Shown here piece by piece: positions 7 through 38,586 of a stretch of 38,987 nucleotides of DNA (position 1 is its first letter; every line of letters begins with the position of its first letter). The position numbers and the translations under genes were made by a program. The DNA is from Candidatus Altimarinota bacterium (GTDB taxonomy: Bacteria > Patescibacteriota > Gracilibacteria > UBA4473). The DNA lies in assembly GCA_027028725.1 (NCBI GenBank), contig JALVIB010000017.1:1-38987 (forward strand), written 5' to 3'. A model generated the notes under the pieces. The model saw only the letters and a program-made list of their open reading frames with translations, was not told the DNA's origin and ran no database searches.

Positions 7-1713
7 CTAGTCTTTATGGTCGCCATTAACATGACCAAAACCTATTCTTATCCCATCCCCAACTTTTCTAATGTTAAACATCTTATGAATTCCTTCCTCT
101 CCCAGACACAAAATTCTTGACAGTACCTTTTTAATAGCGGTGGAGACTTTTTTAATAATTTCCGGTTTTGGTTTGAATTTCTCTAAATCAAAATCAGGAA
201 ATTTTTCGCGGATTTTTGCCAAATGAGTGATGATAGTGGAGGTTTTTAATCCGCGTATTTCAGCGATTTCAGCTAAATCTTTTCCTTCAGCAATCAAGTT
301 TTTGGTTATTTCGGCAGTGGGGATTTTTTTCGCAGAAGAAATCTTAAGTCCGGACTTAAACATATTTTTATCTCGTAACAAGTCCGGACTTGATTTCTCT
401 TTTACAAAATCCCGCGAAATTTTTTCCAATTCTGCTTCGGGAATGTTTTCATAAACTTTTTCAATTTCCGCGGAAAGTTGCTGAAACCGCTTATCCGCTG
501 CCATCGCCAGCTCATCCATTTGTAAAACATTACCGTTCGCGCCCAGTAATTTCAATCCGCCCCAACTTTTGACCCGTGACAGGGCGACATAACCTTGCCC
601 GCACTCAAAAGTTTTCGACAAATCCATCTCCGCGCGCTCCAAAGTCATTCCTTGCGATTTATGCACTGTAATTGCCCACGCCAAGCGAAGCGGAATTTGC
701 GAAAAAGTCGCGAGATTTTGCCCGAACTCGTTCGTCACCGACCAATCTTCCGGTTTGGCGACAATTTCCCGTCCGTCCGCAATTTCTACGACTGGCCAGC
801 CGTCCGGCGTAATCCGCGAAATTTCGCCCAGAGTCCCGTTGAAATACCCTTTTTCGTAATTATTTTTCACAAAAATCACTTTCGCACCGACTTTTAATTC
901 CAAAACTTCTGGTGCCAGAACAGATTTCGCCAAAGTTTTGGCAAGTGTTTTATTTCCCGCGAATTTTCCAAAAAACATTTCAACCGGTCCGGGAAGTTTT
1001 TTCAATTCCTCGCGATTAATGCGGTCCACATCAGCATTGTGCGTATAAAGTTTTATCGCGAAATCTTCCGAATTTTCGCGGGATTCTTCCAACTTTTCCA
1101 GCAACAAATCCTGCGCCACATCAGAAATTTCGCCACTCCGCATTTCGTTCAAAATATCGGTTAGAGCGCAATCTGCTTGCCGATATTGTTCGGTGATATA
1201 ACAAACTTTCAAATCCGCTTTGACCCAAACCGGCGACATAAAAGCGAATTTTTCGCGGGAATTTAACCGCTCGCGACTGACAGGCGGAAGCTGAAAAAAG
1301 TCGCCTGAAAAAATCACTTGAATTCCGCCGAACGGCTCAAAACTGACTTTGAAAAACCGTAAAATCTGGTCGATACAGCCCAAAGTTTTTTTGGAAATCA
1401 TTGAGATTTCGTCGATTATCAAAACCTCAACTTGTTCCAAACGCTGGCGAACTTTCTTTTTTTTCGCGATTTTTTCCAAATCGCGTTCGGTGATTTCTTC
1501 CTTAATTCCCAAGCCTGACCACGAGTGAATTGTTTGTCCGCCCAAATGTGTCGCCGCAATTCCGGTGGACGCGGTAATCGCCACCGGCACTCCGTTTTTA
1601 CGGAGATAGTTGATGTATTGGTTCAGCACATAAGTTTTCCCCGCCCCTGCCGATCCTGTCAAAAAGACATTTTCGCCAGCTTTCATGATTTTGAGCGCGG
1701 TGGATTGTTTCAT
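7..1713 (-). CDS. Pif1/RecD-family ATP-dependent DNA helicase with C-terminal helix-turn-helix domain
   Basis: Long ORF with Walker A GSAGAGKTY, motif II LIIDEISM, FGG..GDFFQLPPV and C-terminal ITVHKSQGMT. I moved the start to MKQSTALK (ATG, rc of 1711-1713), because the ORF-track extension to 1827 runs through intergenic repeat elements. Confidence 0.85.
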   Translation of the reverse strand: MKQSTALKIMKAGENVFLTGSAGAGKTYVLNQYINYLRKNGVPVAITASTGIAATHLGGQTIHSWSGLGIKEEITERDLEKIAKKKKVRQRLEQVEVLIIDEISMISKKTLGCIDQILRFFKVSFEPFGGIQVIFSGDFFQLPPVSRERLNSREKFAFMSPVWVKADLKVCYITEQYRQADCALTDILNEMRSGEISDVAQDLLLEKLEESRENSEDFAIKLYTHNADVDRINREELKKLPGPVEMFFGKFAGNKTLAKTLAKSVLAPEVLELKVGAKVIFVKNNYEKGYFNGTLGEISRITPDGWPVVEIADGREIVAKPEDWSVTNEFGQNLATFSQIPLRLAWAITVHKSQGMTLERAEMDLSKTFECGQGYVALSRVKSWGGLKLLGANGNVLQMDELAMAADKRFQQLSAEIEKVYENIPEAELEKISRDFVKEKSSPDLLRDKNMFKSGLKISSAKKIPTAEITKNLIAEGKDLAEIAEIRGLKTSTIITHLAKIREKFPDFDLEKFKPKPEIIKKVSTAIKKVLSRILCLGEEGIHKMFNIRKVGDGIRIGFGHVNGDHKD

Positions 1714-1832
1714 CGTGTGAATTGTAGAGGTTTTTGGAAAATCCCGCGAATTTAACCCCCTCGCCCCCTTGTCAGGGGGGAAATATAATACGCAAAGCAG
1801 CTTTGTAGACGCAATGACGCGTCGCACTTTCT

Positions 1833-1850: not shown

Positions 1851-2126
1851 TTAATTTCACTTCCCGCCCAAGAGTTTCTCGCACGATGGCGGGATCTCTT
1901 CTTTTTTCAAAGTTTGTTTACATTCTCCCTCCTAGCAGGAGGGAGAGAGAGGGCGGTAGAAATATTTTGAAACAACCCTTCCCGAGTACTCGGGACTAGG
2001 AGAGGGAGTTCAAAGGAACAGGATTTGTTGTTTTTTCGCGGGATTTTTAATTATCTATGAAATTCTTTTGACAATATTGCAAATATTTGTTTTATTGTGT
2101 GCGATATATTTTTTAACAACTACAAA

Positions 2127-2792
2127 ATGAGAAAAAATGAAGAAAGATTTGAGCTTAATGAAAACATGGCTGTCAAAAATTTAAGAAATGTTTTAAAAGA
2201 AATTATCAAAAAAGAAGGATCAGGAGAAGAGGTAGCAGAATTGATAGATCGTGCTAAATCAATTATTGCAGAAAACATAAAAGTTGCAGATTTTGGACAT
2301 AAAAAAGCCCAAAAACGATTTGAGAAACAAGGAAATCCGCGAAAAGTTAAAAAATTAGGTAGATTAAATACTAAACTAAAACAACTTGAAGATAAAATCC
2401 CGCGCGATTATTGGAAAAATTTTGATGCAGAAGAAATACTAAATGCGGTTGAAGAGGTTTATTTTGAAAATAATAAAAAAGAAAAAGACGATATTGTTCC
2501 TGTTGGAGATGTTCAAAAAGTAGTTCATGGAAAAGTTTATAAACAAATATTGCCATCTGTAAATCCCGCGAAAAAATCTATTCAAGTTGATAAAGGTAGT
2601 ATGGCGGAAGTTCAAGCAAAATCAAAAATTGAAGAGGCGGCGCATCAAGAAAGAAAAATTACAAATCCTAAATGGATGGGGAATGAGAAAATAGGGGTTA
2701 GAAAAGGAAGAAGAAAGTTTTTAGAAGGAGTTGAAAATATAAAAAGAGATTTAAATCGAACTTATGGGATAAATAGTTTAACAGGTTTATAA
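2127..2792 (+). CDS. Hypothetical Lys/Glu-rich protein
   Basis: ORF 2097..2792, for which the ATG at 2127 (MRKNEE) is preferred over the GTG at 2097. No recognisable family. It contains motif copies at about 2397 and 2561. Confidence 0.5.
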   Translation: MRKNEERFELNENMAVKNLRNVLKEIIKKEGSGEEVAELIDRAKSIIAENIKVADFGHKKAQKRFEKQGNPRKVKKLGRLNTKLKQLEDKIPRDYWKNFDAEEILNAVEEVYFENNKKEKDDIVPVGDVQKVVHGKVYKQILPSVNPAKKSIQVDKGSMAEVQAKSKIEEAAHQERKITNPKWMGNEKIGVRKGRRKFLEGVENIKRDLNRTYGINSLTGL

Positions 2793-2808
2793 AATTTCGC
2801 GGGATTTT
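2791..2808 (+). repeat. Perfect 18-nt copy of the motif in reverse orientation (AAAATTTCGCGGGATTTT), overlapping a stop codon
   Basis: Read directly; it begins within the TAA stop of the 2127..2792 ORF. Confidence 0.95.
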
Positions 2809-2819
2809 TATATTAAATC

Positions 2820-3203
2820 ATGGAGTTAATAGAAAAAGAAATCAAAACGGATTTTGGATACGCTAAAATGTCTGTAGTAAAAGATGAAGGGGTGTTTCAA
2901 GGATATTTAGATAAAATTGTATCATACAAGAGGGGCTGTGGTCATGAGATTATGAAAATAGTTTTGGAATGGTTTTATCAACAAAAAGTCGATGAAATTT
3001 TATTACAGATTACGCCTTTAGGAGATGTTTCAGCGGATAAGTTAGTAAAATTTTATAAAAAAGAAGGATTTGAGGTAATTGCTCGTTCAGGGCGAATGAC
3101 CAAGGAATATTTAGAATTTATAGTTAAAGAAAACTTTAAAAATTTCGCGGGATTTTACCGCGGATACATTCCGATTCCCCCTGCTAGATTGACGATTTTG
3201 TAA
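2820..3203 (+). CDS. GNAT-family N-acetyltransferase-like protein
   Basis: 127-aa ORF with a KRGCGHEIM (R/Q-x-x-G-x-G/A-like) motif and FYKKEGFEVI, typical of the GNAT core. Its 3' end overlaps the convergent rhodanese gene by about 49 nt. Confidence 0.55.
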   Translation: MELIEKEIKTDFGYAKMSVVKDEGVFQGYLDKIVSYKRGCGHEIMKIVLEWFYQQKVDEILLQITPLGDVSADKLVKFYKKEGFEVIARSGRMTKEYLEFIVKENFKNFAGFYRGYIPIPPARLTIL

Positions 3204-3478
3204 TCGGGGAATTGGGGAGCAATTTGTTTTTGCAGATATCCTGATGATCCGCCCGAGTGGCAATAAAGCACAAAATAAGTTCCTTTGGGGTATTTTCCCG
3301 CGAAAATTTCGTTGGAAATCGGGACGGCGTCTTCAACCGGATGATTAATCATATCGACCAAAACTACTTTGTCGCCAAGTTCTTCTTTTTTCTTGAAATA
3401 CTCGTCCCAAGTCCAGCTTTCCGCACCACCACCAAAGATAGAGCAGGCGTTTGAGTCATACATTTCGTTGATATCCAT
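3155..3478 (-). CDS. Single-domain rhodanese-like sulfurtransferase
   Basis: 107-aa ORF with VVLVDMINHP...YFVLYCHSGGSSG...IVNLAGGIGMY, which is the rhodanese fold pattern with an active-site Cys loop. Confidence 0.7.
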   Translation of the reverse strand: MDINEMYDSNACSIFGGGAESWTWDEYFKKKEELGDKVVLVDMINHPVEDAVPISNEIFAGKYPKGTYFVLYCHSGGSSGYLQKQIAPQFPDYKIVNLAGGIGMYPR

Positions 3479-3745
3479 GTTTTTTGGCTAAAATTTCGCG
3501 GGAATTTTATTTTGTTCGGTGTTTGTGGCAAATGTTTTTGAGTTACATAAGATGATTGATTAAAGAAAAATCCCCCTCAATCCCCCTTTAAAGAAAGGGG
3601 GAAGTTCCTCAGAAAAATAAACAAAGAAATTCCTTTAGCTCCCTCTTTTTTCAAAGAGGGCGGGGGGTGATTTTATAATTTCGCGGGATTTTGCCCTCAC
3701 CCCCACCCTCTCCCCAAGGGAAAGGGAGTTATTTGGAATTTATAA

Positions 3746-3773
3746 TTGACAAAATACCCCCTGTGGGTATAAT
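3746..3773 (+). promoter_or_regulatory. Sigma70-type promoter (TTGACA, 16-nt spacer, TATAAT) for the CsoR-family gene; transcript probably leaderless
   Basis: TTGACA lies at 3746-3751 and TATAAT at 3768-3773. The ATG at 3781 is only 7 nt downstream of the -10 element. Confidence 0.6.
3754..3770. promoter_or_regulatory. Inverted repeat ATACCC-N5-GGGTAT, a CsoR/CstR-type operator overlapping the -10 element
   Basis: The sequence ATACCCCCTGTGGGTAT was read directly. It has the same TACCC...GGGTA arm type as published CsoR-family operators (recalled from memory, e.g. B. subtilis copZA). Confidence 0.55.
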
Positions 3774-3780
3774 CCGGGCG

Positions 3781-4011
3781 ATGAAAAAAATTCAAAATCG
3801 GTTAAAGCGATTAGAAGGGCAGATTCGCGGTTTGCAAAAACTGCTAGAAACTGCCGATGATTGCGAAAAAATCATCATTCAGTTTTCCGCAGCGAAGTCG
3901 GCGCTGGATAATTGTTATGCGCTTCTGCTTTCTGAAAATCTCGCGAAATGTTTTCGTAATAAAGATAATCAGGATTTGGAGAAGTTGTTGAAATTGATAA
4001 TAAAAAAATAA
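3781..4011 (+). CDS. CsoR/RcnR/CstR-family (DUF156) transcriptional repressor
   Basis: KKIQNRLKRLEGQIRGLQKLLE..DC..IIQFSAAKSAL...ENLAKC. The two Cys are 29 residues apart, as in CsoR and CstR. The start is set at the ATG at 3781, because the upstream ORF extension crosses a hairpin repeat and the promoter. Confidence 0.85.
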   Translation: MKKIQNRLKRLEGQIRGLQKLLETADDCEKIIIQFSAAKSALDNCYALLLSENLAKCFRNKDNQDLEKLLKLIIKK

Positions 4012-4072
4012 GCACCTCACCCCCGCCCTCTCCTAGAAGGAGAGGGAGTATAAATAACTTTCAAATAAGGAA

Positions 4073-5620
4073 ATGAAAAAAATTCTAATGTTATCGGCTC
4101 TCGTGCTACTCTTCGGATGTAGTCAAACAGAAAAACCGCAGGTGGAGCAACCAAAATCCCGCGAAATTTTTACACTCAAAGCAGAAACTGTTGCACCAGT
4201 TCTTAATCTAACTGGAAATGTGGAAGCGGAAAAGCAAATTCCAATTTCCGCGAAAATTATGGGGCGAATTGATTCGCTCAAAGTTGATGTCGGCGACAAA
4301 GTTTACAAAGGACAAATTCTCGCGAGATATTCCGCAGTGGATAATGATTCTTTGGCGCGGTATCAAAGCGCTTTAAGTCAATTCAAGTCAACCGAAGCGT
4401 CTGCCGAAAATGCCGTCAATACAGCGGAAGTTCAACTAGAATCGGCTGAGCGCGCTTTGGAACAAACCAAAAAAGAAGAAGAAGTTCAGCGCAAAAAACA
4501 ATACGACAATTTATACACCAATGCGAAGTTGTCCGAGATTACGATTTCTAATGTTTTAAATTTTTTAGACAAAAACTTGGAAGCTTCCAATAAATTTGAA
4601 GGAATGAGTCCGTACGAAAATGTTTTGGGGCGGAATAATTCTATTTTGAAAAATAATTTAAAAAACCGCGTTGAGGAACTAGTCCGAAATTTCGCGGGAT
4701 TTTCCAAGACCGAACCAAAATCAGAGCAAGCAATCCTAAGTTTCGCCAGTGAGCGACTGGATTTTTTACGCAAAGTGAAAAGTGCTTTACTAGATTTTGA
4801 TTCCTTAGTTCGGGGGACAGTCTCTTCGCGAACTTTTCCCGAAGCTGTGAAAAACGGGTTTGTTGCCGAAACCGCGAATTATTTACAAGCGATTTCGCAA
4901 GCGATTACTAATTTAGAAAACTTTATCACTGGAACGAAAGTGATGGACGAACAACTTGGCTTGAAAGTTTTAGCCATGGAAAATCAGCTAGAATCCGCGA
5001 AATCTGGGGTGGAACTCGCCAAAGCCAATGCCGAAAATCAAGTAGTAGCGGCGCGTTCGCAGGTTAATATCGCTTCCACTTATCAGCGAGAAATGGTGGT
5101 CAAAGCACCGTTTGCTGGAGTAATAATTTCGCGGGATATTGATATGGGGCAACTGGTTTCCCCTGGTCAGAAATTATTTGAGTTAGCGGATATGTCCGGT
5201 TTCAAAATCAAAACTGATGTTTCTGATGCTTACGCGGCGATGATTAAAATTGATATGCCGGTAGAAATTTCTGTCGATGGTTTGAAGGAAAATTTCGCGG
5301 GAATTGTGACCAAGGTAAATCCAGCGCTTGATCCGCGGACACGAAAATTGGGAATTGAAATTACTTTCCAAGAAGATGAGGAAGCCGAGGAAAACATTTT
5401 AGATAAACTCAAAATCGGGTTATTTGCACGGATTAAAATTCAGTTACCGGAACGAGAAACTTTCAAAATCCCGCGAAATTTTGTCCGTTTTGACTACGAC
5501 GGGGCAAAAATTGAATTAGAAAACGGGGAAGTGAAAAAAGTTGATATTTTGTCCGAAGAAAAAGGTAAAGTGGAGATTTATTTTGATGGGATTGAAGAAG
5601 GACTAAAAATTGTTAATTAA
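4073..5620 (+). CDS. Efflux RND periplasmic adaptor (HlyD/MFP family) lipoprotein
   Basis: Lipobox LLFGCSQ, a long coiled-coil middle region, barrel-sandwich motifs (GQILARY, VKAPFAGVI), and a position directly upstream of an RND pump. Confidence 0.85.
   Translation: MKKILMLSALVLLFGCSQTEKPQVEQPKSREIFTLKAETVAPVLNLTGNVEAEKQIPISAKIMGRIDSLKVDVGDKVYKGQILARYSAVDNDSLARYQSALSQFKSTEASAENAVNTAEVQLESAERALEQTKKEEEVQRKKQYDNLYTNAKLSEITISNVLNFLDKNLEASNKFEGMSPYENVLGRNNSILKNNLKNRVEELVRNFAGFSKTEPKSEQAILSFASERLDFLRKVKSALLDFDSLVRGTVSSRTFPEAVKNGFVAETANYLQAISQAITNLENFITGTKVMDEQLGLKVLAMENQLESAKSGVELAKANAENQVVAARSQVNIASTYQREMVVKAPFAGVIISRDIDMGQLVSPGQKLFELADMSGFKIKTDVSDAYAAMIKIDMPVEISVDGLKENFAGIVTKVNPALDPRTRKLGIEITFQEDEEAEENILDKLKIGLFARIKIQLPERETFKIPRNFVRFDYDGAKIELENGEVKKVDILSEEKGKVEIYFDGIEEGLKIVN
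4153..4170 (+). repeat. Perfect 18-nt motif copy inside a CDS (translated KSREI)
   Basis: AAAATCCCGCGAAATTTT was read at 4153-4170 within the adaptor gene. Confidence 0.95.
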
Positions 5621-5680: not shown

Positions 5681-8600
5681 ATGAACAAAATTAAAGAAAC
5701 AAATTCAAGTAATCTTTCTCCCGCCTTGCGGGAGGCGAGGGGGTTAAAACTAAACTTTGCCGGTAAAATCGCGAAATTTTTCCTAGAAAATCGTCCGTTG
5801 ACGATTCTGATTTTGGTCGGGCTAATTTTCGCGGGATTTTTGTCCTACAAAATGACTCCAAAGCAGTATAATCCGACAATTTCCATGCCGGCATTTACCG
5901 TTATTGTCGATTATCCCGGAGCTTCGGCGGAGGAAGTCGAAAGATTTGTCACCCGCGAACTTGAAGAAAAAATCGCGGATGTTCCCGGAGTTGATAAGAT
6001 TTTTTCTCAATCGATGGACGGCGGGCGTGCAGTTTCTTTTGTCCAATTTTTAGTTGGGGAAGATTTTGAAGATTCTCGCGTGAAATTGACCAACAAAGTT
6101 TTGGGAAATCTAGATTTGCGACAAGGAATGATTCAAACACCGCTAATTAAATCAGTTTCCGCGGACGATGTGCCAGTTTTAACGATTGGTTTTTCTGCGA
6201 AAAATTTATCGCAAAACCAAGTGCGGGTGCTGGCTTACGACATTATGAACCAGCTCAAAAAAGTGCCAAATGTCGCGAATTTAGATATTCACGGTGGAGA
6301 ACCGCGGGTCTTGAAAATTTCCCTAGATCTAGGGCGAATGAAAAATCGCGGGGTTTCCGTGCAGGATATAAAAAATGCGATTTTGGCGAATAATTTCCGT
6401 TTCCGAACCGGGAAAATCGAAAATCCCGCGAATTTTTTTGAAGTAGAGGTGAACGGAGAACTAACCGATCCCGAGTCCGCGAAAAAAATTACCGTTGTGC
6501 CGGGCGTGAAATTAGAAGATGTCGCCAAAGTTTCGGACGGATATCGAGAAAAAACTTCTTTTGTGCAGGTTTTCAAAAAAGATGGCGTGCAAGACACGGT
6601 TTTTGTTTCTCTCGCTAAACGAAAAGGATCAAATGCGCAAACCGTTGTCAAAGACGCGCGGGAAGCTTTGTCGCGAATTATGGCTAACGAAAAATTCGCG
6701 GGATTAGATTTTCACATTTATCGTGATGAAGGAGAAGTTTCGCGGAAAGCAATTGGTGGATTGATGCAAAATCTAATCTCCTCAATTCTGATTGTTTCCA
6801 TCGTTCTGTGGCTGTTTCTCGGACTTCGTTCAGCTTCAATTGTGGCGATTGCTATTCCGCTGACGATGGCGGGAGTTTTCATTATCGGGTATTCCGCGGG
6901 GAAAAATATCAACCGCGTGACTTTGTTTGCTTTGATTTTATCGCTGGGACTTTTGGTCGATTCGGCGACGGTCGTGGTAGAAAACATTTATCGGCATTTG
7001 CAGGAAAAAGCAAAATCCGCGAAAAAATCACTTCAAGTTCGGCGGGAAGCAATTGTCGAAGCGGTAAATGAAGTGGGAATCGGATTATTTTTATCAACTT
7101 TGACTTCGGTGATTGTCTTTTTGCCGACTTCCAACCTGTCAGGAATGATGGGAGATTACATGGGACCATTATCTTTCTTTTTGCCGATGGCGTTGATTGT
7201 TTCCATGTTGGTCGCCTATGTTTTGACGCCTTTTTTGGCTGATGTGATTTTGCCAAGAGACCTCACCCCAAACCCTCTCCTAGAAGGAGAGGGAGCTAAA
7301 AGGAATTTATCATTTTTTGACCGCGTAACAGAAAAATATTCTAAACTACTGACTAAAATTTTGGATAAAGATAAATTCCGCCGATTCTTTTTGATAACGA
7401 TTTTTGGGGCATTGTTTTTAGTTTTTACTTTTCCTGTTTTGAAATTAGTGCATTTCAAAATGCTCCCTTCGGCGAACAAAAACCAATTCTTTGTTTACAT
7501 CGACGCGCCACAAGATACAAATTTCCCGCAAACGCAAAAAATCGCGGGATTTATCAGCAAAGAACTTCTGAAAAATCCGGAAATTGTTTCGGTGCAAAGT
7601 TTTGTCGGCACGGCTTCCGTCGTGGACTTTAACGGACTTTTCAAAGGAGCGAATTACCGCATTGCACCGTATATGGCAACTTTGCGGGTGAATTTAACCG
7701 ACACAGATGATCGTTCGATTAAATCAACACCACTTCTGGACGCGGAACGAGATAAAATTCTCGCGAAAATTTCTAAACTTCAAAATAGTACCGTTTGTCA
7801 GGGGGAAGCTTGTGAAAATCCCGTGAAAAATAGCCCTCACCCCAACCCTCTCCCCGAGGGAGAGGGAGATATAAACTTTTACGAAACTTTGAAAAACACC
7901 ACTTTCAAATTCTTGGAAGATCCACCGGGTCCGCCGGTGCGGGCGACTTTGATGGCTAAAATTAAAGGTCCAAACCGCGAGCTTTTGAAAAAAGTCGCGC
8001 GTGATGTAGAGGAAATGTTCCGCAAAACTGATCGCGTGGTGGACATTGATACTTCTATCAGTGACAATGTGCGAAAAGTTTCGTTTCGCGTAGATCACGA
8101 AAAAGCTTTGGAAGCGGGGATTACGACCATGCAAATTTATGAAGCGTTGTCGGCAATTACTGCGGAAAAAAATATTTCCCAGTTCCACCAAAAAGATTCA
8201 CCGGAAATGATTGACATTACTTTGAGCGTGCCACCAGAAAAACGCGATAAATTGGAAGATTTGACCGAAGTTTACATCAAAAATTTCGCGGGAAATATGG
8301 TGCCGCTTTCCGCTGTCGTTCGTAAAGTGGAAACTCGTCCGGAGGAAGTTCTTTATCTCGACACACGCGATGAAACAATTTATGTGACGGGGGAATTGAA
8401 AAATCGGAGTGTGATTTACGCGACAATTGATTTGATGTTTGATATTTTTGATTACGATTTTCCGGAAGGTGGAAAAATCGTGGATTGGAGTTTGTACGGA
8501 TTTGATTTTGAGACAAAATCCCGCGAAATTTACCATATCGAATGGGGTGGAGAACGCGAGCTGACTTTGGATAATTTTCGCGACTTGGGATTGGCGATGT

Positions 8601-9209: not shown

Positions 9210-9641
9210 ATGAAAAAATTCTTATCAGAAAAAGTTTTGGGCAAAATCGCCTACAAAATTTCTACCGACAAACCGTTTGAGGAAGTTTTCCAAAAACTTG
9301 AAAAAGCTATTACAAATAACGATTTCAATATTATCACCACTCATGATATGCGGAAAACTTTTGAGAAAAATAATTTGGAAATTTCGCGGGATTTTCAGTG
9401 TCGCATTGTGGAATTATGTAATGCCAAAAAAGCGCACAAAGCGTTGGGAATGAGTATGGATTTGGGGATTATGATGCCGAAAAGTATCATTATTTCCCGC
9501 GAAAATAACCAAACAGTTCTGCGCTACATGCAGATGAAACCGTGGATGGTGGGAATGATGTTTCCGGATATAAACATTGCGCCGATGTCCAAAAAAGTGA
9601 TGGCGACTTTGAAAAAAATCGTCCACGAAGCGGTGGCTTAA
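9210..9641 (+). CDS. DUF302 domain protein
   Basis: 143 aa with a pattern typical of DUF302 (ITTHDM..., RIVELCNAK.A...L......G.MMP..I.I). Confidence 0.7.
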   Translation: MKKFLSEKVLGKIAYKISTDKPFEEVFQKLEKAITNNDFNIITTHDMRKTFEKNNLEISRDFQCRIVELCNAKKAHKALGMSMDLGIMMPKSIIISRENNQTVLRYMQMKPWMVGMMFPDINIAPMSKKVMATLKKIVHEAVA

Positions 9642-9758
9642 AATCCCGCGAAAAATTCTCTCCCGCCTTGCGGGAGGGCTTCAGTCTTCGCTAAAGCTTC
9701 GACTGACAAGAGGGTAGTGGTAAAAAAATAAGTCATTTAATTCTTAACTAAACATAAA

Positions 9759-9983
9759 ATGTACAAACTAAAAACAGATTCATGGTATCTCGAACGAATT
9801 TTGTTCCTAATTGCTGGGTTTTTCGTCCTTGGCTCAATTTTCGCGGGATTTTATGTTCATCCGTATTTCTTTTATTTCGCGGGATTTGTCGGATTTTCTC
9901 AACTAATTTTTGGACTAACCGGTTGGTGTTTGATGGCGATTATTTTGCGAAGCTGCGGAGTGAAAGGGAAGTTGGAGAAATGA
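9759..9983 (+). CDS. DUF2892 (YgaP-like) small membrane protein
   Basis: 74 aa with two TM helices and the GLTGWCLM motif. Two motif copies are translated as IFAGF and YFAGF. Confidence 0.6.
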   Translation: MYKLKTDSWYLERILFLIAGFFVLGSIFAGFYVHPYFFYFAGFVGFSQLIFGLTGWCLMAIILRSCGVKGKLEK

Positions 9984-10177
9984 TTTCGCGGGATTTTAGA
10001 AAAAAATGCGTTAATGTAGGGAACGAATATTTTCGTTCCTCGTTAAATTATCTTTATTTGAATTAATTTTTTGGAGCGAAGATATTCGCTCCCTACGAAC
10101 AAGAATAAAATCCCGCGAGATTTTTCTCGTAACCCCGCCGCCTTGTAAACTCCCCCAAAACTTTTAGAATACTCCTG

Positions 10178-11689
10178 ATGTTTTCCAATAAGAAAATCCT
10201 CGGGAACGCTTTCGCGCAGTTTGGCGGAAAGTTTATCACGATGTTCACGAGTTTTTTGATTGTGAAGTTGATAACTTCCCTTGGGGCGAGTTTTTATGGA
10301 CAATATGTGACAGCTTCTGAATTTTTAGCGTTTTTTGGGATTATTGCGGATATGGGGCTTTTTGCCGTGGCGGTGCGGGAAATTAGCAAGGCGGATAGTG
10401 CGAAAAATCCCGCGAAAAAAGACCTCACCCCAAACCCTCCCGAACACTCGGGACTAGAAGGAGAGGGAATACACTCAAGTTCGGAATTCATTTTAGGAAA
10501 TATTTTGTCATTTAGATTACTTTTAATTTTAGGAGTAATTATTTTCGCGGGAATTTTTGCGCAATTTGTTCCGCAGTATTCTCCTGATTTGAAACTGGGG
10601 ATTTGGATTACTGCGATTTCTATGGGTTTAACAATTATCGCGGGAACTTTATCCAGTGTTTTGCAGGCACGAATGAAAATTCATAAGTATTCTTTGTCTT
10701 TGGTGATAGGGAAAATACTTTATGCTATTTGCGTATTTTTTATTATCAAAAATACGGAAATTTTCGCGGGATTTAACATCTTTTTTACTATTTTATGGGC
10801 AGGCGCGATTTCCAATTTTATTGTATCTTTATTAGTGTACTACTTTGTTTCCCGCGAAATTAAAATCCGCCTGCTTTGGGACACGAAATTCATCAAAAAA
10901 ACACTGCGCGATACTTTGTCTTACGGGCTGGCACTGGTTTTGCAAACTCTATATTTACGCATCGATATGATCTTGATTTCCATTATTTTGGGGATAACTT
11001 TCGCGGGAATTTACGGTGTGGCGACACGCGTTTTGGAATCAATTTTGGTTTTGGGCGTGTTTTTTGGGCAAGCGATGTTACCGCAGATTTCCGCACAGGA
11101 ACAAGATAGACAAAAATCTTCCGCGAGTTTGGTCTGGGGAATTGAGAAACTGCTCATTTTCTCTCTACCGATTATTATTGGCGTGAGCTTTTTTTCGCGG
11201 GATTTGGTAATACTTTTGAGTTCCAAAGAATTTCTGACCACCGCAACACAAATCGGATCTGACCGAATTTTACAAATCCTCATTCCGACCGTTTTTTTCG
11301 CCTTTTTCAACCAACTTTTCACTTTCACTTTGGTCGCGAAAAATTTACAGCGGAAACTGGTCTGGATAAACGGTTTGGCGCTCATCGCCAACGCGGTTTT
11401 GAACATTATTTTCCTGCGTCAATACGGACTTATCGCGGCGGCTATTTCAACCGTTGTTTGTGAAGTCTTGGTTTTTATTCTACTTTCCCGCGAAATTTCG
11501 CGACATTTTTCGTTTCCATTTTCCCGAAAGAATTTGAGCATAATTTTGCTGGCAAATTTAGCAATTTTCGCGGAAATTTTCTTTACTCCGCTTCGCGATA
11601 ATTTACTTCTAGCGGTTTTGATTTGCGGGATTACTTATTTGGTGATTTTGGGGACGAATGTTCGCGGATTCTTAAATTCATCAGAATAA
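10178..11689 (+). CDS. MOP-superfamily polysaccharide/lipid-linked oligosaccharide flippase (Wzx/MurJ-like)
   Basis: 503-aa polytopic membrane ORF with a typical polysaccharide-biosynthesis-protein layout. An in-frame hairpin element lies at 10423-10469. Confidence 0.75.
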   Translation: MFSNKKILGNAFAQFGGKFITMFTSFLIVKLITSLGASFYGQYVTASEFLAFFGIIADMGLFAVAVREISKADSAKNPAKKDLTPNPPEHSGLEGEGIHSSSEFILGNILSFRLLLILGVIIFAGIFAQFVPQYSPDLKLGIWITAISMGLTIIAGTLSSVLQARMKIHKYSLSLVIGKILYAICVFFIIKNTEIFAGFNIFFTILWAGAISNFIVSLLVYYFVSREIKIRLLWDTKFIKKTLRDTLSYGLALVLQTLYLRIDMILISIILGITFAGIYGVATRVLESILVLGVFFGQAMLPQISAQEQDRQKSSASLVWGIEKLLIFSLPIIIGVSFFSRDLVILLSSKEFLTTATQIGSDRILQILIPTVFFAFFNQLFTFTLVAKNLQRKLVWINGLALIANAVLNIIFLRQYGLIAAAISTVVCEVLVFILLSREISRHFSFPFSRKNLSIILLANLAIFAEIFFTPLRDNLLLAVLICGITYLVILGTNVRGFLNSSE

Positions 11690-12092: not shown

Positions 12093-13388
12093 ATGAAAAA
12101 ATATCTTCTAGCGACTGTTTTACTAGCGGTGATTTTCACAATCCCGCGAATTTTCGCCACTTACGAGTGGCGGGAAACCAAAATTTCGCGGGTTTTGAGT
12201 TCTAATGTTTTTGTAACTTTGGATGATAAAAAGTGGCGGATAATCGGGGTTTTGCCGAATGACGAATTTTCTTCTAACAAGCGAGAGGCCTGCCACGCCA
12301 AGGGAAATTCCCGCGAAATTAGCGAGCTGTTGCTGGATAACAAAATTTTTTCCGCGACTGATGAAAAAGTCAAAGATGCATTGCACTTGAAAATCGGCAA
12401 AGAATATGTGACGGAAATTATTTTGCGAAAAGGTTGGGCAAAAATGAATGATGATGAAGTGAGTTCGTATTTTTCCGCGAGATTTAAGCGAGCGCAGGAA
12501 CTTGCGCAGAAAGAAAAACTTGGTTTGTGGGGACCATGTTTGGATGACTTGAATTGGCAAAAAATTCGCGGGAATTTCGGCGAACGCATGCGGAAATTGA
12601 AACGCGAAAATCCACAATTTCTCGGCTCGGTAGCGGTTGGTGAAGTGGTGGAAGTTTTGTCAGGCAATGAGTTTCGGTTGAAAAACGGACCAATTGTGCG
12701 CTTGGCAGATGTGGAAATTCCCCGCGAAAATAATTCGGCGAGTCGCTGTTTTCAGAAAAACTCGCGAAATTATTTGGAAAATCTGATTTTGGGCAAGAAA
12801 GTTCGTTTGGAAAAACCGGTAAATTCCCGCGAAATTATGGATTACAAGTTGGTGCGGGTGGTTTATTTGGAAGAGGGGAATCGTTTGAAAAAACTACCTC
12901 ACCCTCCCGAGTACTCGGAACTAGGAGAGGGAGCCAACCTAAATTTTCGCCACCACCTTGCGGGGGGAAAGAATAAAAATTTTCGCCACCGCCTTGCGGG
13001 GCACAGCGGGATTTCGGTTAATGAAAAAATGATTCGGGATGGTTTTGGGAAATTCGCGGGATTTTCAAAACCTCACCCCAACCCTCTCCTAGAAGGAGAG
13101 GGAGTTTTAAAGGAATTGCAAAAAGAAGTTTATGCTAATCCGCGGGGGGCGTGGGCGATTTGTGCGCGGGAGATTTTGAATACTTCGGTGGAAAATCCCG
13201 CGAAAAATTCCGAAATTCGTGAAATTGACGAGAATTGTCCGATTAAAGGGAATATTTCTGGCACCAAAGCCAATCCGATAAAAACTTATCACACCGTTTT
13301 GAGCGGTTGGTACGATCGTGTCCAGCCGGAACAATGTTTCCAAACAGAGGAAGAGGCAAATCTCGCGGGATTTCGGAAGGTGAAGTGA
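12093..13388 (+). CDS. Secreted nuclease with two SNase (thermonuclease)-like domains and a C-terminal IKGN..YH..CF..EA..GFR module
   Basis: N-terminal signal/anchor MKKYLLATVLLAVIFT. Domain 1 ends in AQKEKLGLWGPC and domain 2 in ANPRGAWAIC. The tail reads CPIKGNISGTKANPIKTYH...CFQTEEEANLAGFRKV. Several hairpin repeats are translated inside domain 2. Confidence 0.75.
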   Translation: MKKYLLATVLLAVIFTIPRIFATYEWRETKISRVLSSNVFVTLDDKKWRIIGVLPNDEFSSNKREACHAKGNSREISELLLDNKIFSATDEKVKDALHLKIGKEYVTEIILRKGWAKMNDDEVSSYFSARFKRAQELAQKEKLGLWGPCLDDLNWQKIRGNFGERMRKLKRENPQFLGSVAVGEVVEVLSGNEFRLKNGPIVRLADVEIPRENNSASRCFQKNSRNYLENLILGKKVRLEKPVNSREIMDYKLVRVVYLEEGNRLKKLPHPPEYSELGEGANLNFRHHLAGGKNKNFRHRLAGHSGISVNEKMIRDGFGKFAGFSKPHPNPLLEGEGVLKELQKEVYANPRGAWAICAREILNTSVENPAKNSEIREIDENCPIKGNISGTKANPIKTYHTVLSGWYDRVQPEQCFQTEEEANLAGFRKVK

Positions 13389-13964: not shown

Positions 13965-15065
13965 ATGCAAAAAATTAAAAATCAACCTCACCCCAACCCT
14001 CTCCTAGAAGGAGAGGGAGTTAAAAGGATTTATTTAAAACAACCCCCTCAATCCCCCTTGTCAGGGGGAAGCTCTGGAAATCCCGCGAAAAAAAAGCCGT
14101 TTATTCCAAATTTGAAAAAATTGTCCCAAAATCCGCAACGATTAGCTAGCGGGCATCGGCTTTGTCCGGGGTGTGGGATTGGAGTGATTTTGAAGCAAGC
14201 ACTGACGACGATTGATAATCCTGTGGTGGTTGCCAATGCGACAGGGTGTTCGGAAATTTGTTTTTCGCCGTATCCGCAAAACGCTTTCAAAGTGCCGTGG
14301 ATTCACTCGGTTTTTGAAAACAGCGCGGCGGTGATTTCCGGTGTGGAGTCGGCGTGGCGAGTTTTCGTGAAAAAAGGAAAACTGACTGAGGAACAGAAAA
14401 AAATTAAATTTTTAGCCGTCGGCGGAGACGGAGCGACTTACGATATCGGGTTTCAGTGGCTGAGTGGGGCGATTGAACGCGGGCACGATTTCACTTACAT
14501 TTGTTTCGATAACGAAGGATATATGAACACTGGTTATCAGCGATCGGGAGCGACAAATTTGGGGTTCGCGACACATACTTCCCCAGTTGGAAAGAAAATT
14601 GTCGGGAAAATTCAGCAACGGAAAGATCTAACGCGGATTATTGCGGCGCACCATATTCCGTATGTGGCGCAGGTAAATCCCGCGAATTCTTTTGATTTGA
14701 TGAAAAAAGCCAAAAAAGCGTTTGATGCGGAAGGACCAGCTTTTTTAAACGCTTTCTCGATGTGTCCGACAAACTGGAAATATTCCAGCGAACAGGGGAT
14801 TGAGATTGCGGCGTTGGCAACTGAAGCGGGATTATGGCCACTTTATGAAGTCGATCACGGGCGTTGGAAAATTAATTTCAAACCGAAAGCCAGCAAAACT
14901 TACCGCGAAAAAAACGAGCCGTTGGAGAAATTTTTATCACTGCAAGGACGGACTAAACACCTTCTCAAACCGGAAAATCGCGGGATTTTGGACCAACTCA
15001 AAAAGCAAATCGCTGACGATTGGGATTATTTGCTGGGTATGGAGGAAGCGTTTCCGTTGAAGTAA
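13965..15065 (+). CDS. porB: 2-oxoacid:ferredoxin oxidoreductase beta subunit (TPP-binding, PorB-type)
   Basis: GHRLCPGCG and GGDGATYDIGFQWLSGAIERGHDFTYICFDNEGYMNTG (TPP-binding signature). The first roughly 45 codons are translated repeat elements. Confidence 0.85.
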   Translation: MQKIKNQPHPNPLLEGEGVKRIYLKQPPQSPLSGGSSGNPAKKKPFIPNLKKLSQNPQRLASGHRLCPGCGIGVILKQALTTIDNPVVVANATGCSEICFSPYPQNAFKVPWIHSVFENSAAVISGVESAWRVFVKKGKLTEEQKKIKFLAVGGDGATYDIGFQWLSGAIERGHDFTYICFDNEGYMNTGYQRSGATNLGFATHTSPVGKKIVGKIQQRKDLTRIIAAHHIPYVAQVNPANSFDLMKKAKKAFDAEGPAFLNAFSMCPTNWKYSSEQGIEIAALATEAGLWPLYEVDHGRWKINFKPKASKTYREKNEPLEKFLSLQGRTKHLLKPENRGILDQLKKQIADDWDYLLGMEEAFPLK

Positions 15066-21856: not shown

Positions 21857-21872
21857 AATCCCGCGAAAATTT

Positions 21873-26462: not shown

Positions 26463-26735
26463 AATTTTCGCGGGAAATTTTTAGAAATTAATAGTTAAAA
26501 GTTAAGAGTTAATAATTATTTTTCGTGGGAAGATAAAGAGGGAGGACTCCCATATAAGTGGGAAAATCCCGCGAAATTTTTCTCGTCATTGCGATCCCGT
26601 CTTGCGGGGGTGGCAATCTCCTTCCTTTTCTATTCCTTCTTATCGCGGAATACATAATTTTTATGGAAAAAATTTGAAGTAGATTGCCACGGTCGTTCCG
26701 CTCCGCTATACTCCCTCGCAATGACAATTTTTTAA

Positions 26736-27572
26736 TTAAACCATTAACAATCCCCAATACCAATCAATAATTTCTTGCCCACTGTGTAGGAATAATAACA
26801 AGCTTGGCATCAAAAAAGCGCCCATCGGTAAAGCGAGTTTTCCAGAAATTCGCGGGATTTTTTTCGCGAGTTTTTTTTGAAATATCAAAATTGGCAAAGC
26901 GACGATAGTTCCAAGAATGTAGGCGACAAATAAAGATCCGAGTAAAAGTTTCCAGCCGAGTAAAATTCCCATCAGCGCGCCAAATTCAAAATCTCCTTGT
27001 CCAACTCCTTCGCGTTTTAATAAAATTTTTGTGCCCCAAAATTGTAAATAATAAAACAAAAATCCCGCGAAACCTCCGATTAAATAAAGCGAATAATCTG
27101 CTCCGTTGTAAACTTTCCAGCCCGCCCAGAGAATCGCGATAAAAATCGCGGGAAACGAGATACGGCGGTCAACTTCCATGAATTTTAAGTCGTAAAAGAA
27201 AAGAATTAAAATCAGAAAAACGGAAGTTATTAAAAAGATGAAATCTATGTCAAAAAATACCCCCGCGGAGCGGGGCGCGGCGTGAAAAAATTTTTCTGCG
27301 AAAATATAGAATGTTATAGCGAAAGTAAGCTCTACTAACGGATAAAAAAACGGGATTTTTTTTCCACAATTTTTGCACATTCCACGCTGACAGAGCCAAG
27401 AAAAAATTGGGATAAGGGAGAGTGCGGAAAGTTTTTTTTGGCATTTCGGACACTTGCTTCGTCCCGCGAAAATTCCCGATTCATCGAAATGTAATCGCCA
27501 AATCAGCATTGTCGAAAAACTTCCGAGCATAGCTCCGAGGATGGCAAAAAGGATTGGATAAAGATTATTCAT
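26736..27572 (-). CDS. pilD: Prepilin peptidase (A24 family, PilD-type)
   Basis: N-terminal CPKCQ..CKNCG zinc-ribbon-like segment with LIPIFSWL, plus the catalytic-Asp contexts FYDLKFMEVD and GQGDFEFGALMG. The start is the ATG (rc of 27570-27572). Confidence 0.9.
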   Translation of the reverse strand: MNNLYPILFAILGAMLGSFSTMLIWRLHFDESGIFAGRSKCPKCQKKLSALSLIPIFSWLCQRGMCKNCGKKIPFFYPLVELTFAITFYIFAEKFFHAAPRSAGVFFDIDFIFLITSVFLILILFFYDLKFMEVDRRISFPAIFIAILWAGWKVYNGADYSLYLIGGFAGFLFYYLQFWGTKILLKREGVGQGDFEFGALMGILLGWKLLLGSLFVAYILGTIVALPILIFQKKLAKKIPRISGKLALPMGAFLMPSLLLFLHSGQEIIDWYWGLLMV

Positions 27573-27633
27573 TGGTTGGATTTTAGTAGTTTGTAAATAA
27601 AAATGCGAAAATTTCGCGGGATTTTCAAAAATC

Positions 27634-27747
27634 GTTGTCATCTCGACCGATGAATTTAAGCTTAAAAACAGAGTAGTGGAGAGATCTCAACAAAAGATTT
27701 CTCCATTCTGTCCTAACACAAGTTTTAACTTCCAGTCGAAATGACAA
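27634..27747. repeat. Second, more degenerate copy of the TTGTCATCTCGACCGA-TIR MITE-like element
   Basis: The 5' end reads GTTGTCATCTCGACCGA and the 3' end reads CCAGTCGAAATGACAAA. Confidence 0.4.
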
Positions 27748-27822
27748 AGGAAAAAACTTCGCGGGAATTTTTGAGAAATCACCCCCCGCCCTCTTTGAAA
27801 AAAGAGGGAGCCAAAAGAATTT

Positions 27823-28794
27823 TTACGAACAAAACTTCACAATAAATTTTTCTACTGCGAGTTCTAATTCGCCAGTATCATTACTAGTTGATTGGATTCC
27901 ACCGGTTTTGATTTTCATATCAATATCAAAAAGGGCGTCATACATCATCTCAATTTTTTCCCGCGAAAAATTACGCGATAAAGGAAGTGTTTTTTTGACT
28001 GTAAAAGGATGTAGTTTGGTTTCCTGCGCAATATCTCGTTCAGATAAATTTCTTTCCAATCCCTCAATAATTTGAGCGTGAATACGGATTTCCCGCTGAA
28101 CCATCGAAAAAATTTGTTGTACTGGCGTGCCACTAATTAATAAATCGCGGAATTTTTGAATTGCTCCCTGCGCATTGCATCTACTCATATTTGTCAGAAA
28201 ATCCCAAATTTCCAGCTGGGGATTGGGCAAAGTCAGAGTTTCGATAAAATCCCGCGAAATTTCTCCATTTCCTGCGGAAATAAGTTTTTTTATCTCACTT
28301 GATAAGCGCCATAAATCGTCTCCACATCGTTGCCAAAGTTGGCGGGCATTTTCCCGCGAAATTTTGCCACCTTCTTGTGCCGTAAACTTCTCAATCCAGC
28401 GAATAAGCTCGTTTTCGGCGAGTTTTTCAAATTTTTCGGTGCGCGCCTTAGCCAATAAAAATTTAGAAAATTTTGTCCGTTTATCTAACTTCGGCGCAAC
28501 AATCATCAGCGAACATTCCGCCTCGTAGTCAGGGAGTTTTTCAAAAAACTTTTTTTTCGCGGATTTTTCATATTTCTCCGCGTCCCAAAAGTTTTCGCAA
28601 ACAATTAAGCGTTTTCCACCAAACAAATTCGGCGTGAAAACAGAGTTTTCCAAATCAGCGTAAGTGTCCTCCTTGCCAAACAAAACAATTTCTCCGTCAG
28701 GATATTTCTCGCGAAATTTTTGTTTATAGAATTTTAACCGATTACTTAATCGGTAGGAATCTTCGCCAGTTAGTAGAACTAGGTTTTTTATCAT
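27823..28794 (-). CDS. holA: DNA polymerase III delta subunit
   Basis: 323 aa. The N-terminus LLTGEDSYRL...LFGGKRLIV and the overall layout are typical of HolA. Confidence 0.75.
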   Translation of the reverse strand: MIKNLVLLTGEDSYRLSNRLKFYKQKFREKYPDGEIVLFGKEDTYADLENSVFTPNLFGGKRLIVCENFWDAEKYEKSAKKKFFEKLPDYEAECSLMIVAPKLDKRTKFSKFLLAKARTEKFEKLAENELIRWIEKFTAQEGGKISRENARQLWQRCGDDLWRLSSEIKKLISAGNGEISRDFIETLTLPNPQLEIWDFLTNMSRCNAQGAIQKFRDLLISGTPVQQIFSMVQREIRIHAQIIEGLERNLSERDIAQETKLHPFTVKKTLPLSRNFSREKIEMMYDALFDIDMKIKTGGIQSTSNDTGELELAVEKFIVKFCS

Positions 28795-31457: not shown

Positions 31458-31529
31458 GAGTTCTTTCATTTTTTAAACTACCTCACCCCAGCCCTCTCCT
31501 AGAAGGAGAGGGAGGCGAAAGGAATATTT

Positions 31530-33464
<1,935 letters not shown>

Positions 33465-36095: not shown

Positions 36096-36641
36096 ATGAT
36101 GAAAAAAATTGTTCTCGTTCTCGGATTAATGGTTTCCTCAATTTTCGCGGGAAATTATTTTGTAAATGCTCAATCGGCAAATTACAATGTCAGATGGAAT
36201 GCTGTAAATATTTCCAAAGATAATGTAGATGCGGTTGCGAATGGAGTTCGTCCCGGTGATGTCGTGCGTTACGAAGTTATTTTGAGTGGCGGAGATGGTC
36301 CAGGGACTTATAATCCACGAGTTGATTTAGCGGATGTTTTAAACAAAGCCGAAATGGTTAATATGGGTGGGGGAAGTTTGGAAGGAACAGATTTAGTTTT
36401 CCCGCAAAAATTATGTGCTGGTTGTGAAGAACAAGTTTTTTCTTTCTTCGTTCGTGCCAAAGATGTTTGTGGACAAGCTACAAATATGACGGCTTCAATT
36501 AACAATGTTAAAGTAGTTGTGCCTTTTGATTGTGATTTAACACAAAGTGGTCCAAGTCTTTTATTATCTTTGTCAGTTGGTCTAATTCTAGTAATTATGG
36601 TCTACTTCATCATTTCTCTGAGAAGAGAGGAAATTAAATAA
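36096..36641 (+). CDS. Hypothetical secreted protein with a C-terminal TM anchor
   Basis: Signal peptide MMKKIVLVLGLMVSSIFAGNYFVNA and C-terminal LLLSLSVGLILVIMVYFIISLRRE. Confidence 0.55.
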   Translation: MMKKIVLVLGLMVSSIFAGNYFVNAQSANYNVRWNAVNISKDNVDAVANGVRPGDVVRYEVILSGGDGPGTYNPRVDLADVLNKAEMVNMGGGSLEGTDLVFPQKLCAGCEEQVFSFFVRAKDVCGQATNMTASINNVKVVVPFDCDLTQSGPSLLLSLSVGLILVIMVYFIISLRREEIK

Positions 36642-37962: not shown

Positions 37963-38586
37963 TTAATTAAAATTAGGGTCAAGCGGTAGAGTTCTAAATC
38001 TTATATAATGTCCAGCTTCTGGGTATCCTGTTTCGTCTAAATCTAGAGCTAATCCATTCCAAGTAGAATTAACTCTTTGGCAATTATTGTTTTTATATAA
38101 CCGTACATAATTATGCAGTCTTCCAAAGTTTTCATATTTATAATCCCCCGGAATATTAGAAATATGATTTTTTATGGAACTGTTCCCATAAAAAACAAGA
38201 ACCTCATCTAAATATTGTTCAGCAGAGACAAGTAAAAATTTACTATTGTCATAGGCTTCACGGATAAACACATAACAATCTTTTTCGGCAGGCGGAAGAG
38301 TGATGCCTTTTTCTTTTAATTTATCTACGATGCATTTTGTAGTATTGTTTATTTCATCAGTGGTGCCAGTACAACCTTCCTGAAATTTAATATTTCCAGT
38401 TTCGAGTGATTCTAGAAGAATTATTTTTTCAACCTGTTTTAATTCGGATATTCTTTTAGTGTCGCGAGATTTCTTCTGATAACCACTAAAAGTAGTTACG
38501 GAAACCGTCGCAAGAATACCAATGATTACAATCACCACCAAGAGTTCAATTAGAGTAAATCCCGCGAAATTTCGTTTGTTTGGCAT
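37963..38586 (-). CDS. Type IV pilin / pseudopilin with a prepilin N-terminal cleavage-methylation domain
   Basis: The leader MPNKRNFAG is followed by FTLIELLVVIVIIGILA. The globular part contains 4 Cys. Confidence 0.85.
   Translation of the reverse strand: MPNKRNFAGFTLIELLVVIVIIGILATVSVTTFSGYQKKSRDTKRISELKQVEKIILLESLETGNIKFQEGCTGTTDEINNTTKCIVDKLKEKGITLPPAEKDCYVFIREAYDNSKFLLVSAEQYLDEVLVFYGNSSIKNHISNIPGDYKYENFGRLHNYVRLYKNNNCQRVNSTWNGLALDLDETGYPEAGHYIRFRTLPLDPNFN

Follow-up and report, generated by a model that had tools for sequence, protein, structure and literature searches.

Here, we propose that a 38,987-bp stretch of DNA from a bacterium that belongs to the Candidate Phyla Radiation (CPR), contig JALVIB010000017.1 (deposited as Candidatus Altimarinota bacterium and referred to below, over its whole length, as the window), carries many copies of a short word that is maintained at the level of the DNA, with the frames in which the word is translated being filtered by selection on the proteins. 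Of this we are nearly certain. The word is AAAAT-CCCGCGA-AATTT, 17 bases made up of a GC-rich core and A/T-tract flanks, and it is comparable to the uptake signal sequence (USS; AAGTGCGGT with AT-rich flanks) of Pasteurellaceae and to the DNA uptake sequence (DUS; GCCGTCTGAA) of Neisseriaceae. We also favour, with a good deal less assurance, a fuller account in which this DNA-level word belongs to a narrow Peribacteria-like CPR lineage, passes through a protein filter, and serves as an uptake signal.

The core of the word, CCCGCGA, occurs 124 times in the window (58 times on the + strand and 66 times on the - strand) at a mean spacing of 312 bp, or one word about every 300 bases. The 9-mer ATCCCGCGA was found 78 times, where dinucleotide-preserving shuffles predict 0.41, and the 13-mer AATCCCGCGAAAT was found 122 times with up to 2 mismatches, where 4.0 are expected. 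This puts the 9-mer at 2.0 per kb and the 7-mer core at 3.2 per kb, and the 17-base footprint of the word takes up about 5% of the window DNA; extrapolated from this density, there would be thousands of copies per genome. Aligning all 124 cores produced the logo AAAA(T)-CCCGCGA-AA(T)TT(T), which is asymmetric and has about 17 informative positions. The word also failed a palindrome test, as AAAATCCCGCGAAATTT is not its own reverse complement and the two orientations give distinct peptide sets. The spacing of the cores is slightly more even than random (coefficient of variation 0.85 vs 0.99, p about 0.04), and there is no bias of orientation relative to genes (41 coding-strand and 49 template-strand copies, p = 0.46, in 39 kb that do not span a whole replichore). 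The cumulative GC skew climbs across the entire window, while the strands of the word split 58:66. A terminator scan of the window found terminator-like sites no more often than in shuffles, and the word itself forms no hairpin.

Each core was scored for the gene in which it lies, its orientation to that gene, its codon phase, and the peptide that it encodes, which after correction of four open reading frames (ORFs) placed 90 cores in genes and 34 in noncoding DNA. A preliminary description of this DNA had proposed that the word is translated in all six frames, and all six are indeed used, but very unequally (chi-square p = 2e-5). Forward copies are read as N-P-A-K in frame F0 (18 copies; for example K-N-P-A-K-K in the flippase, 10404 to 10420, + strand), as (K)-S-R-E in F1 (19 copies; P-K-S-R-E-I-F in the HlyD-type adaptor, 4153 to 4169, + strand), and rarely as I-P-R in F2 (4 copies; K-I-P-R-N-F in the adaptor, 5465 to 5481, + strand, conserved in all three motif-rich genomes that we compare below). 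Reverse copies are read as (I)-S-R-D/E in R0 (17 copies; E-I-S-R-D-F in the DUF302 protein, 9379 to 9395, - strand, likewise conserved in all three genomes), as F-A-G in R1 (28 copies), and rarely as F/I-R-G in R2 (4 copies; K-I-R-G-N-F in the SNase-domain nuclease, 12561 to 12577, - strand). Every peptide quoted in the preliminary description could be located, including PKSREIF at 4158, KIPRNF at 5470, KNPAKK at 10409, EISRDF at 9384, KIRGNF at 12566, and, among the FAG peptides, LIFAGFL at 5829, IIFAGIF, EIFAGFN, and ITFAGIY in the flippase, and SIFAGNY in a signal peptide at 36145.

No single frame or peptide dominates the copies, which that description had named as the result that would point to a protein-level repeat: the most used frame, FAG, accounts for 31% of coding copies. 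The comparison with published frame usage that it had suggested was run, and the window fits the published pattern, in which the top frame of USS and DUS takes 34-49% of copies and some frames take 0-9% (PMC2817400 Table 2). Two frames are about 5-fold under-used here, as in USS and DUS. The same ranking is nearly reproduced in an independent set of sequences, obtained by scanning metagenome contigs for the perfect 17-mer, which returned 47 short motif-rich contigs from several other samples. In the 43 contigs (91.7 kb) that were left after overlaps with the window were dropped, frames F0, F1, F2, R0, R1, and R2 hold 29, 23, 6, 22, 43, and 15 copies respectively, and in a wider set of 126.6 kb they hold 34, 33, 10, 38, 63, and 17; part of the sequence of L323 and L324, two related loci compared below, is orthologous to that of the window. 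Across the six frames, the ranks correlate positively but not significantly with how often the dipeptides or tripeptides occur in motif-free relatives (rho about 0.5, n = 6), and the R-G frame is rarer than those frequencies predict.

The view that selection acts on the DNA word and not on a peptide, already put forward in the preliminary description, is supported by several lines of evidence. First, noncoding DNA makes up 16% of the window but holds 27% of the cores, 36% of the 9-mers, and 46% of the perfect 13-mers. Second, synonymous codon choice is skewed toward the word (p values from 6e-6 to 3e-17, with expected codon-pair use derived from codon usage elsewhere): 48% of Ala-Gly dipeptides are spelled GCGGGA (23% expected), 50% of Pro-Ala dipeptides are spelled CCCGCG (6% expected), and Ser-Arg dipeptides are spelled TCCCGC in 22% of cases (6% expected) and TCGCGG in a further 32% (3% expected), 54% combined. 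Third, the tripeptides that the word can encode are enriched 5- to 14-fold over a background of 96,371 residues from 20 motif-free relatives. Per 1000 amino acids, FAG stands at 2.39 in the window and 0.26 in the relatives, SRE at 2.03 and 0.15, SRD at 1.01 and 0.09, and PAK at 1.38 and 0.27, and the reversed tripeptides GAF, DRS, and KAP show no enrichment in the window over the same relatives. Reversed tripeptides served as the control in the analysis of USS and DUS by Findlay and Redfield, who found an enrichment of about 2-fold (PMC2817400). To these may be added the retention of cores between genomes and a Ser-Arg-Glu site spelled by the word in both orientations, which we describe next.

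Two related loci that are syntenic with the window and rich in the word, L323 (from the same metagenome-assembled genome, or MAG, as the closest DnaK match, described below) and L324 (from a separate sample), share about 75% nucleotide identity with the window. Among 34 orthologous sites, the core is present in all three genomes at 5, in two at 11, and in one at 18. Window cores are retained in L323 in 62% of cases, vs 16% for other 7-mers (p = 3e-7), and in L324 in 35% of cases, vs 14%. Most copies align to their orthologues without gaps and are 1-4 substitutions apart from them, while a few coincide with alignment gaps (10409, 10764, and the C-terminal copy of the resistance-nodulation-division (RND) pump). 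On the evidence of these alignments, copies are shown to arise by point substitution and not by insertion. The L324 orthologue of the RND pump (1900-5241) has its own lineage-specific insertion of about 24 amino acids (..GSPLSRGLIPSSAHSSRDVIEISRDF..), which carries two copies of the word.

The same alignments bear out the earlier suggestion that the frame used fits the local protein, as copies overlie ancestral Ala-Gly or Ser-Arg-Glu peptides synonymously or are reached through conservative replacements. At one conserved S-R-E of the adaptor, the orientation of the word differs between genomes: the window and L323 have it forward (TCC CGC GAA), and L324 has it reversed (TCG CGG GAA). In the flippase, TIIAGTL corresponds to TIVAGTL in word-free relatives, with GCT GGA changed to GCG GGA, and FVSREIK corresponds to FASREVP, with AGA changed to CGC. 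The DnaK peptide G-K-I-A-G-L-E is kept in most relatives, and its A-G in all of them, with other synonymous codons; in the window its codons ATC GCG GGA TTA match the word (32966 to 32982, + strand). Elsewhere in DnaK, KITRAK, which reads K-I/L-T-R in nearly all sampled relatives, has become KISRAK here, creating TCGCGGG. Variable positions have changed more freely, with LLSREIS in place of LLMYEIV and ITFAGIY in place of SSAVGIY.

The gene at 9759 to 9983 (+ strand) shows both routes side by side. It encodes a 74-amino acid YgaP-like transmembrane protein (DUF2892; Pfam PF11127, 28.6 bits against a cut-off of 25.3, E = 1.6e-6, with an alignment of homologues) and contains two copies of TTTCGCGGGATTT, with cores at 9841 and 9877, both read as FAG. 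The cores are 36 nt apart, in agreement with the statement that IFAGF and YFAGF lie within 50 nt of each other. Copy 1 (9836 to 9852, - strand, frame R1, S-I-F-A-G-F-Y) is derived, as relatives have VILGF or TALGF at the site of IFAGF; the peptide in the window differs by two hydrophobic-to-hydrophobic or small replacements within a predicted membrane helix. Copy 2 (9872 to 9888, - strand, frame R1, F-Y-F-A-G-F-V) lies on an ancestral FAGF peptide (here YFAGF), for which one relative has TTT GCG GGA, one base off the word. A noncoding copy follows the gene (9981 to 9997, - strand), its core at 9986 being 3 nt after the stop codon and its A/T flank overlapping the TGA. Another follows the DUF302 gene just upstream (9640 to 9656, + strand); this copy starts 4 nt after the stop codon, and the TAA belongs to its A-tract.

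Such positions are common among the noncoding copies. Ten of the 34 start no more than 13 nt past a stop codon (2797, 9645, 9986, 13876, 15070, 15297, 21860, 26468, 31403, and 37952), vs 5.5% expected (p = 1e-5), and the stop codon is often part of the A/T flank of the word. One copy overlaps the stop codon of the RND pump (KNPAK followed by the stop, 9125), and the copies at 21860 and 37952 lie exactly between convergent genes.

The preliminary description also held that membrane segments preferentially carry the FAG reading, a claim that survives as a modest, weak trend. By crude Kyte-Doolittle segments, 8 of 28 FAG copies lie inside such segments vs 4 of 62 copies in other frames (p = 0.007), in a test that partly counts the residues of the word itself. 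When hydropathy was taken from the flanks only, neither the window (p = 0.17) nor the replicate set (5/63 vs 4/132, p = 0.12) gave a significant preference, and most FAG copies are in soluble contexts. A trend of this kind is expected, because every reading but FAG contains a charged residue.

For the type IV pilin (37963-38586, - strand; Pfam N_methyl), N-F-A-G-F was correctly said to supply the G/F prepilin cleavage site, but its codons are at 38557-38571 (core 38561-38567) and not at 38566-38583 as first given. The copy spans 38556 to 38572 (+ strand) and is read as R-N-F-A-G/F-T. In the N-terminus MPNKRNFAG/FTLIELLVV, the alignment with mature pilin chains of the PDB begins at F10, so that the word spells the cleavage site itself. 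Another type IV pilin lies 4 kb outside the window (L001 517-1224) and likewise has the word at its G/F site. Also just beyond the window are TraC-like and PrgI-like genes (L001 1237-2421).

In which organisms is the word found? The window comes from a scaffold assembled from a metagenome, and its DnaK shares 96% identity with the protein from an uncultured 'Candidatus Peribacteria' MAG and 70-83% with those of other CPR genomes of the Peribacteria/Gracilibacteria class. The word is dense only in the clade of the window (1.5-2.7 per kb in L021/L323 and 2.1 per kb in L324); of 80 loci from DnaK neighbourhoods, the closest relative alone has it at high density, and 75 others have about zero. A locus with 83% DnaK identity (L003; JABGQW010000031.1) has 10 cores in 19.5 kb and 7 copies of the variant TTCCCGCGA, vs about 0.1 expected, a weak enrichment; this variant may be a 'dialect' of the word. 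Candidates for other dispersed, hyper-abundant words in L079, L063, L036, and L017 were rejected as tandem or protein repeats.

Scans of viral contigs say little, as the phages of this lineage may be missing from the collection. A 14-mer scan gave only single-copy matches among the matches listed, and a 17-mer scan found a single perfect copy in each of 21 contigs, about the level of chance. The 26 viral loci with at least 3 cores mostly have 0.2-0.6 per kb (maximum 1.2), well below the motif-rich contigs, and the densest of them are high in GC.

If the word is kept as DNA, what might its role be? Most probably, like USS and DUS, it marks self-DNA for uptake, a proposition to which we give roughly even chances. 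The likeness is extensive. USS and DUS are also short, oriented words with a GC-rich core that occur in both orientations, and USS also has A/T-rich flanks. They are enriched in noncoding DNA yet mostly genic, with a frame bias that is strong but not exclusive and with Arg-rich frames that are rare. Their encodable tripeptides are enriched and the reversed ones are not, their copies sit at tolerant positions, and close relatives share the word or a variant of it while distant ones are without it. There are also differences. The word is denser here (2.0 per kb as the 9-mer and 3.2 per kb as the core, vs about 0.8 per kb), its imprint on the proteome is 5- to 14-fold where that of USS and DUS is about 2-fold, and single copies cluster past stop codons where inverted pairs make up a large share of intergenic USS and DUS. 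Lastly, the host here is a Peribacteria-like CPR bacterium known only from metagenomes.

In support of an uptake system, the window encodes a pilin and the prepilin peptidase PilD, a second pilin adjoins it, and a PilB-type ATPase is present on L323. ComEC has been reported in 86% of CPR genomes (PMC6744442). According to a 2025 survey, uptake sequences, which can reach about 2% of a chromosome, have been described only in Pasteurellaceae and Neisseriaceae, and our literature search found no paper linking them to any CPR group. The Peribacteria genome paper (PMC4736985) does not mention such a word. When the literature was searched for the string itself, the recognised matches were primers for pET vectors or the T7 promoter that contain ATCCCGCGAAAT. 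The string belongs to the pET vector sequence, where it lies immediately upstream of the T7 promoter, so that searches for it return cloning primers, and vector-contamination screens might flag this lineage.

The alignments and frame counts show that new copies appear by point substitution and are then retained far better than neighbouring sequence, and that a genic copy survives only if the protein can accept at least one of the six readings. Copies land synonymously on existing Ala-Gly or Ser-Arg-Glu/Asp sites and, at variable positions, arrive through conservative replacements; in membrane helices and at the pilin G/F site they are mostly read in the uncharged F-A-G frame, and I-P-R and F/I-R-G are under-used. 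Under the uptake account, the type IV pilus and competence machinery would preferentially bind fragments that bear the word, recombination would bring these into the chromosome, and mutations that create the word would spread by molecular drive.

Several observations weigh against an uptake signal. The function is one that we infer for a host that is uncultured, and the replicate contigs were those picked out by a perfect 17-mer. The genes comEC, dprA, and comEA were not seen in the window or in the related sequence examined. The window pilin has no similarity to ComP, the DUS receptor of Neisseria, beyond the generic N-terminal helix; in the PDB it matches generic type IV pilins over their N-terminal part only, and no ComP is among these matches. 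Peribacteria reportedly synthesise nucleotides themselves (PMC4736985), so that DNA scavenging is a weaker rationale for them than for most CPR bacteria. Inverted-repeat pairs are rare: the 457 cores surveyed include four close doublets, all of them outside the window. These doublets overlap head to head to form the perfect palindrome AAAATCCCGCGAAATTTCGCGGGATTTT (L106 559-586, L128 6-33, L136 155-182, and L175 about 243-279), which, with its GC-rich stem followed by a T-run, looks like a terminator. CpG is strongly over-represented in this 39% GC genome (odds ratio 1.45; rho 1.36 with the word masked), and codon use is CG-rich (GCG for 49% of Ala, CGN for 86% of Arg, and CCG for 41% of Pro). 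The general CpG excess and the CG-rich codons could reflect a mutation or repair bias instead of uptake, or the CpG excess could come from decayed copies of the word or from a mutational or repair bias independent of it. TpA is depleted in the window (0.58).

These last observations lead to the main rival explanation, which we hold to be unlikely, namely that the word is the product of a sequence-specific repair or methylation bias (e.g. of the very-short-patch type), independent of uptake and subject to the same protein filter. The model for such a word is HIP1 (GCGATCGC) of cyanobacteria, a perfect 8-bp palindrome, CG-rich and genic in several frames, for which there are cognate methyltransferases. 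The word resembles HIP1 in its CG-rich core, in the several frames of its genic copies, and in a density comparable to the highest for HIP1: one copy per 300-500 bp is nearer to HIP1 than to the 0.8 or so per kb of USS and DUS. The CGCG palindrome within the core, the CpG excess outside the word, the dominance of GCG and CGN codons, and the rarity of inverted-pair terminators would also be in keeping with such a bias. In contrast to HIP1, the word is asymmetric, about 17 bp long, and flanked by A/T tracts. No cognate methyltransferase is evident in the window, where Pfam finds no DNA methyltransferase or repair nuclease gene, and no repair bias is known to yield so long an oriented word. Moreover, the lineage 'dialect', the use of frames, and the imprint on the proteome match USS and DUS point for point.

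A second possibility, which we regard as doubtful, is that an abundant chromosomal protein with a part in nucleoid organisation, replication, or segregation uses the word as its binding site, with selection for this cellular function acting at thousands of positions. Core retention above background, the slightly even spacing, and the symmetry of orientation would suit such a site. Known architectural sites, however, number tens to hundreds per genome and not thousands. Selection on each of thousands of sites would be very weak, yet DnaK was forced from KITRAK to KISRAK, which fits drive better, and closely related lineages are entirely without the word.

Far less credible is a polar signal of the Chi or KOPS type that directs RecBCD/AddAB or FtsK. 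Chi and the KOPS/AIMS octamers are, like the word, short, over-represented, and tolerated within genes, but they are skewed between strands with replication and about ten-fold rarer. The word shows 58 + and 66 - copies under a rising GC skew and a density an order of magnitude above that of Chi or KOPS, and we rejected this explanation accordingly on strand skew. We give the least credence of all to a motif at the protein level (e.g. F-A-G-F) or repeated insertion of a small mobile element (REP, MITE, or an element like those of Rickettsia), both rejected: FAG is the commonest reading and one repeat family in the window does insert in frame, but six frames are used, 27-46% of copies (34 cores) are noncoding, the same S-R-E is spelled in both orientations, and most copies align to orthologues without gaps.

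That inserting repeat family, D8, consists of palindromic, GC-rich copies some 56 nt long (CCTCACCCCAACCCTCTCCTAGAAGGAGAGGGAG); in contrast to the word, it is a true in-frame insertion, resembling the in-frame insertions of Rickettsia palindromic elements. Copies are at 3689-3744, 4009-4064, 7256-7311, 7829-7884, 13065-13120, 13980-14035, and 31475-31530. Two are in frame in the RND pump ORF (..PNPLLEGEG.. and ..PHPNPLPEGEG..) and absent from the L323 and L324 orthologues, and others are found within the ORF of the SNase nuclease and in the N-terminal part of a thiamine pyrophosphate (TPP)-enzyme ORF. A third repeat family, the hairpin TAACCCCCTCGCCCCCTTGTCAGGGGGGAAAT of about 32 nt, has 9 copies, many intergenic and often adjoining the main word, among them those at 1753, 9134, 14042, 20224, 23398, 34181, 35210, and 36930.

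The gene content of the window was established from 36 called ORFs checked against Pfam; the calls rest on ORFs, with some start codons uncertain. By Pfam, the window encodes a PIF1-type helicase, a CsoR-type repressor, an HlyD-type adaptor, an RND pump, a DUF302 protein, the YgaP-like protein, a MurJ/Wzx-type flippase, and an SNase-domain nuclease, together with an aminotransferase, PurB, SpoU, L28, UvrB, the PilD prepilin peptidase, HolA, DnaK, FtsX, RecO, MiaA, and the type IV pilin. Rfam and tRNA scans of the window found two tRNAs only, which show one small ORF to be spurious. The genetic code is taken to be the standard one, since long ORFs are intact under table 11. In a related strain (L155; Ga0256832_1038201), homologues of window positions 499-1753 and 26729-28263 are joined, a junction that indicates a rearrangement between close relatives.

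Frame bias and co-evolution of the proteome with a word are already established for USS and DUS, and what we describe is a new instance in a new host. The word may even be a third, independently evolved family of uptake signals, the first outside Proteobacteria and the densest yet (2-3 per kb), a suggestion that we advance tentatively and hold slightly short of even odds. In practical terms, the density of the word offers a sharp signal for binning and strain-tracking of the lineage in metagenomes, and the word is an obvious candidate for addition to donor DNA in attempts at genetic manipulation. If the uptake account is true, it would mean that natural transformation in CPR bacteria can be sequence-selective, serving self-recognition and not just DNA scavenging. 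It would also mean that such a word can be strong enough to reshape tripeptide use 5- to 14-fold and to alter a near-universally conserved residue of DnaK, and the molecular-drive model would thereby meet an extreme test set by nature. Self-DNA recognition would be extended to ultra-small, probably episymbiotic cells without secretin-based uptake at an outer membrane.

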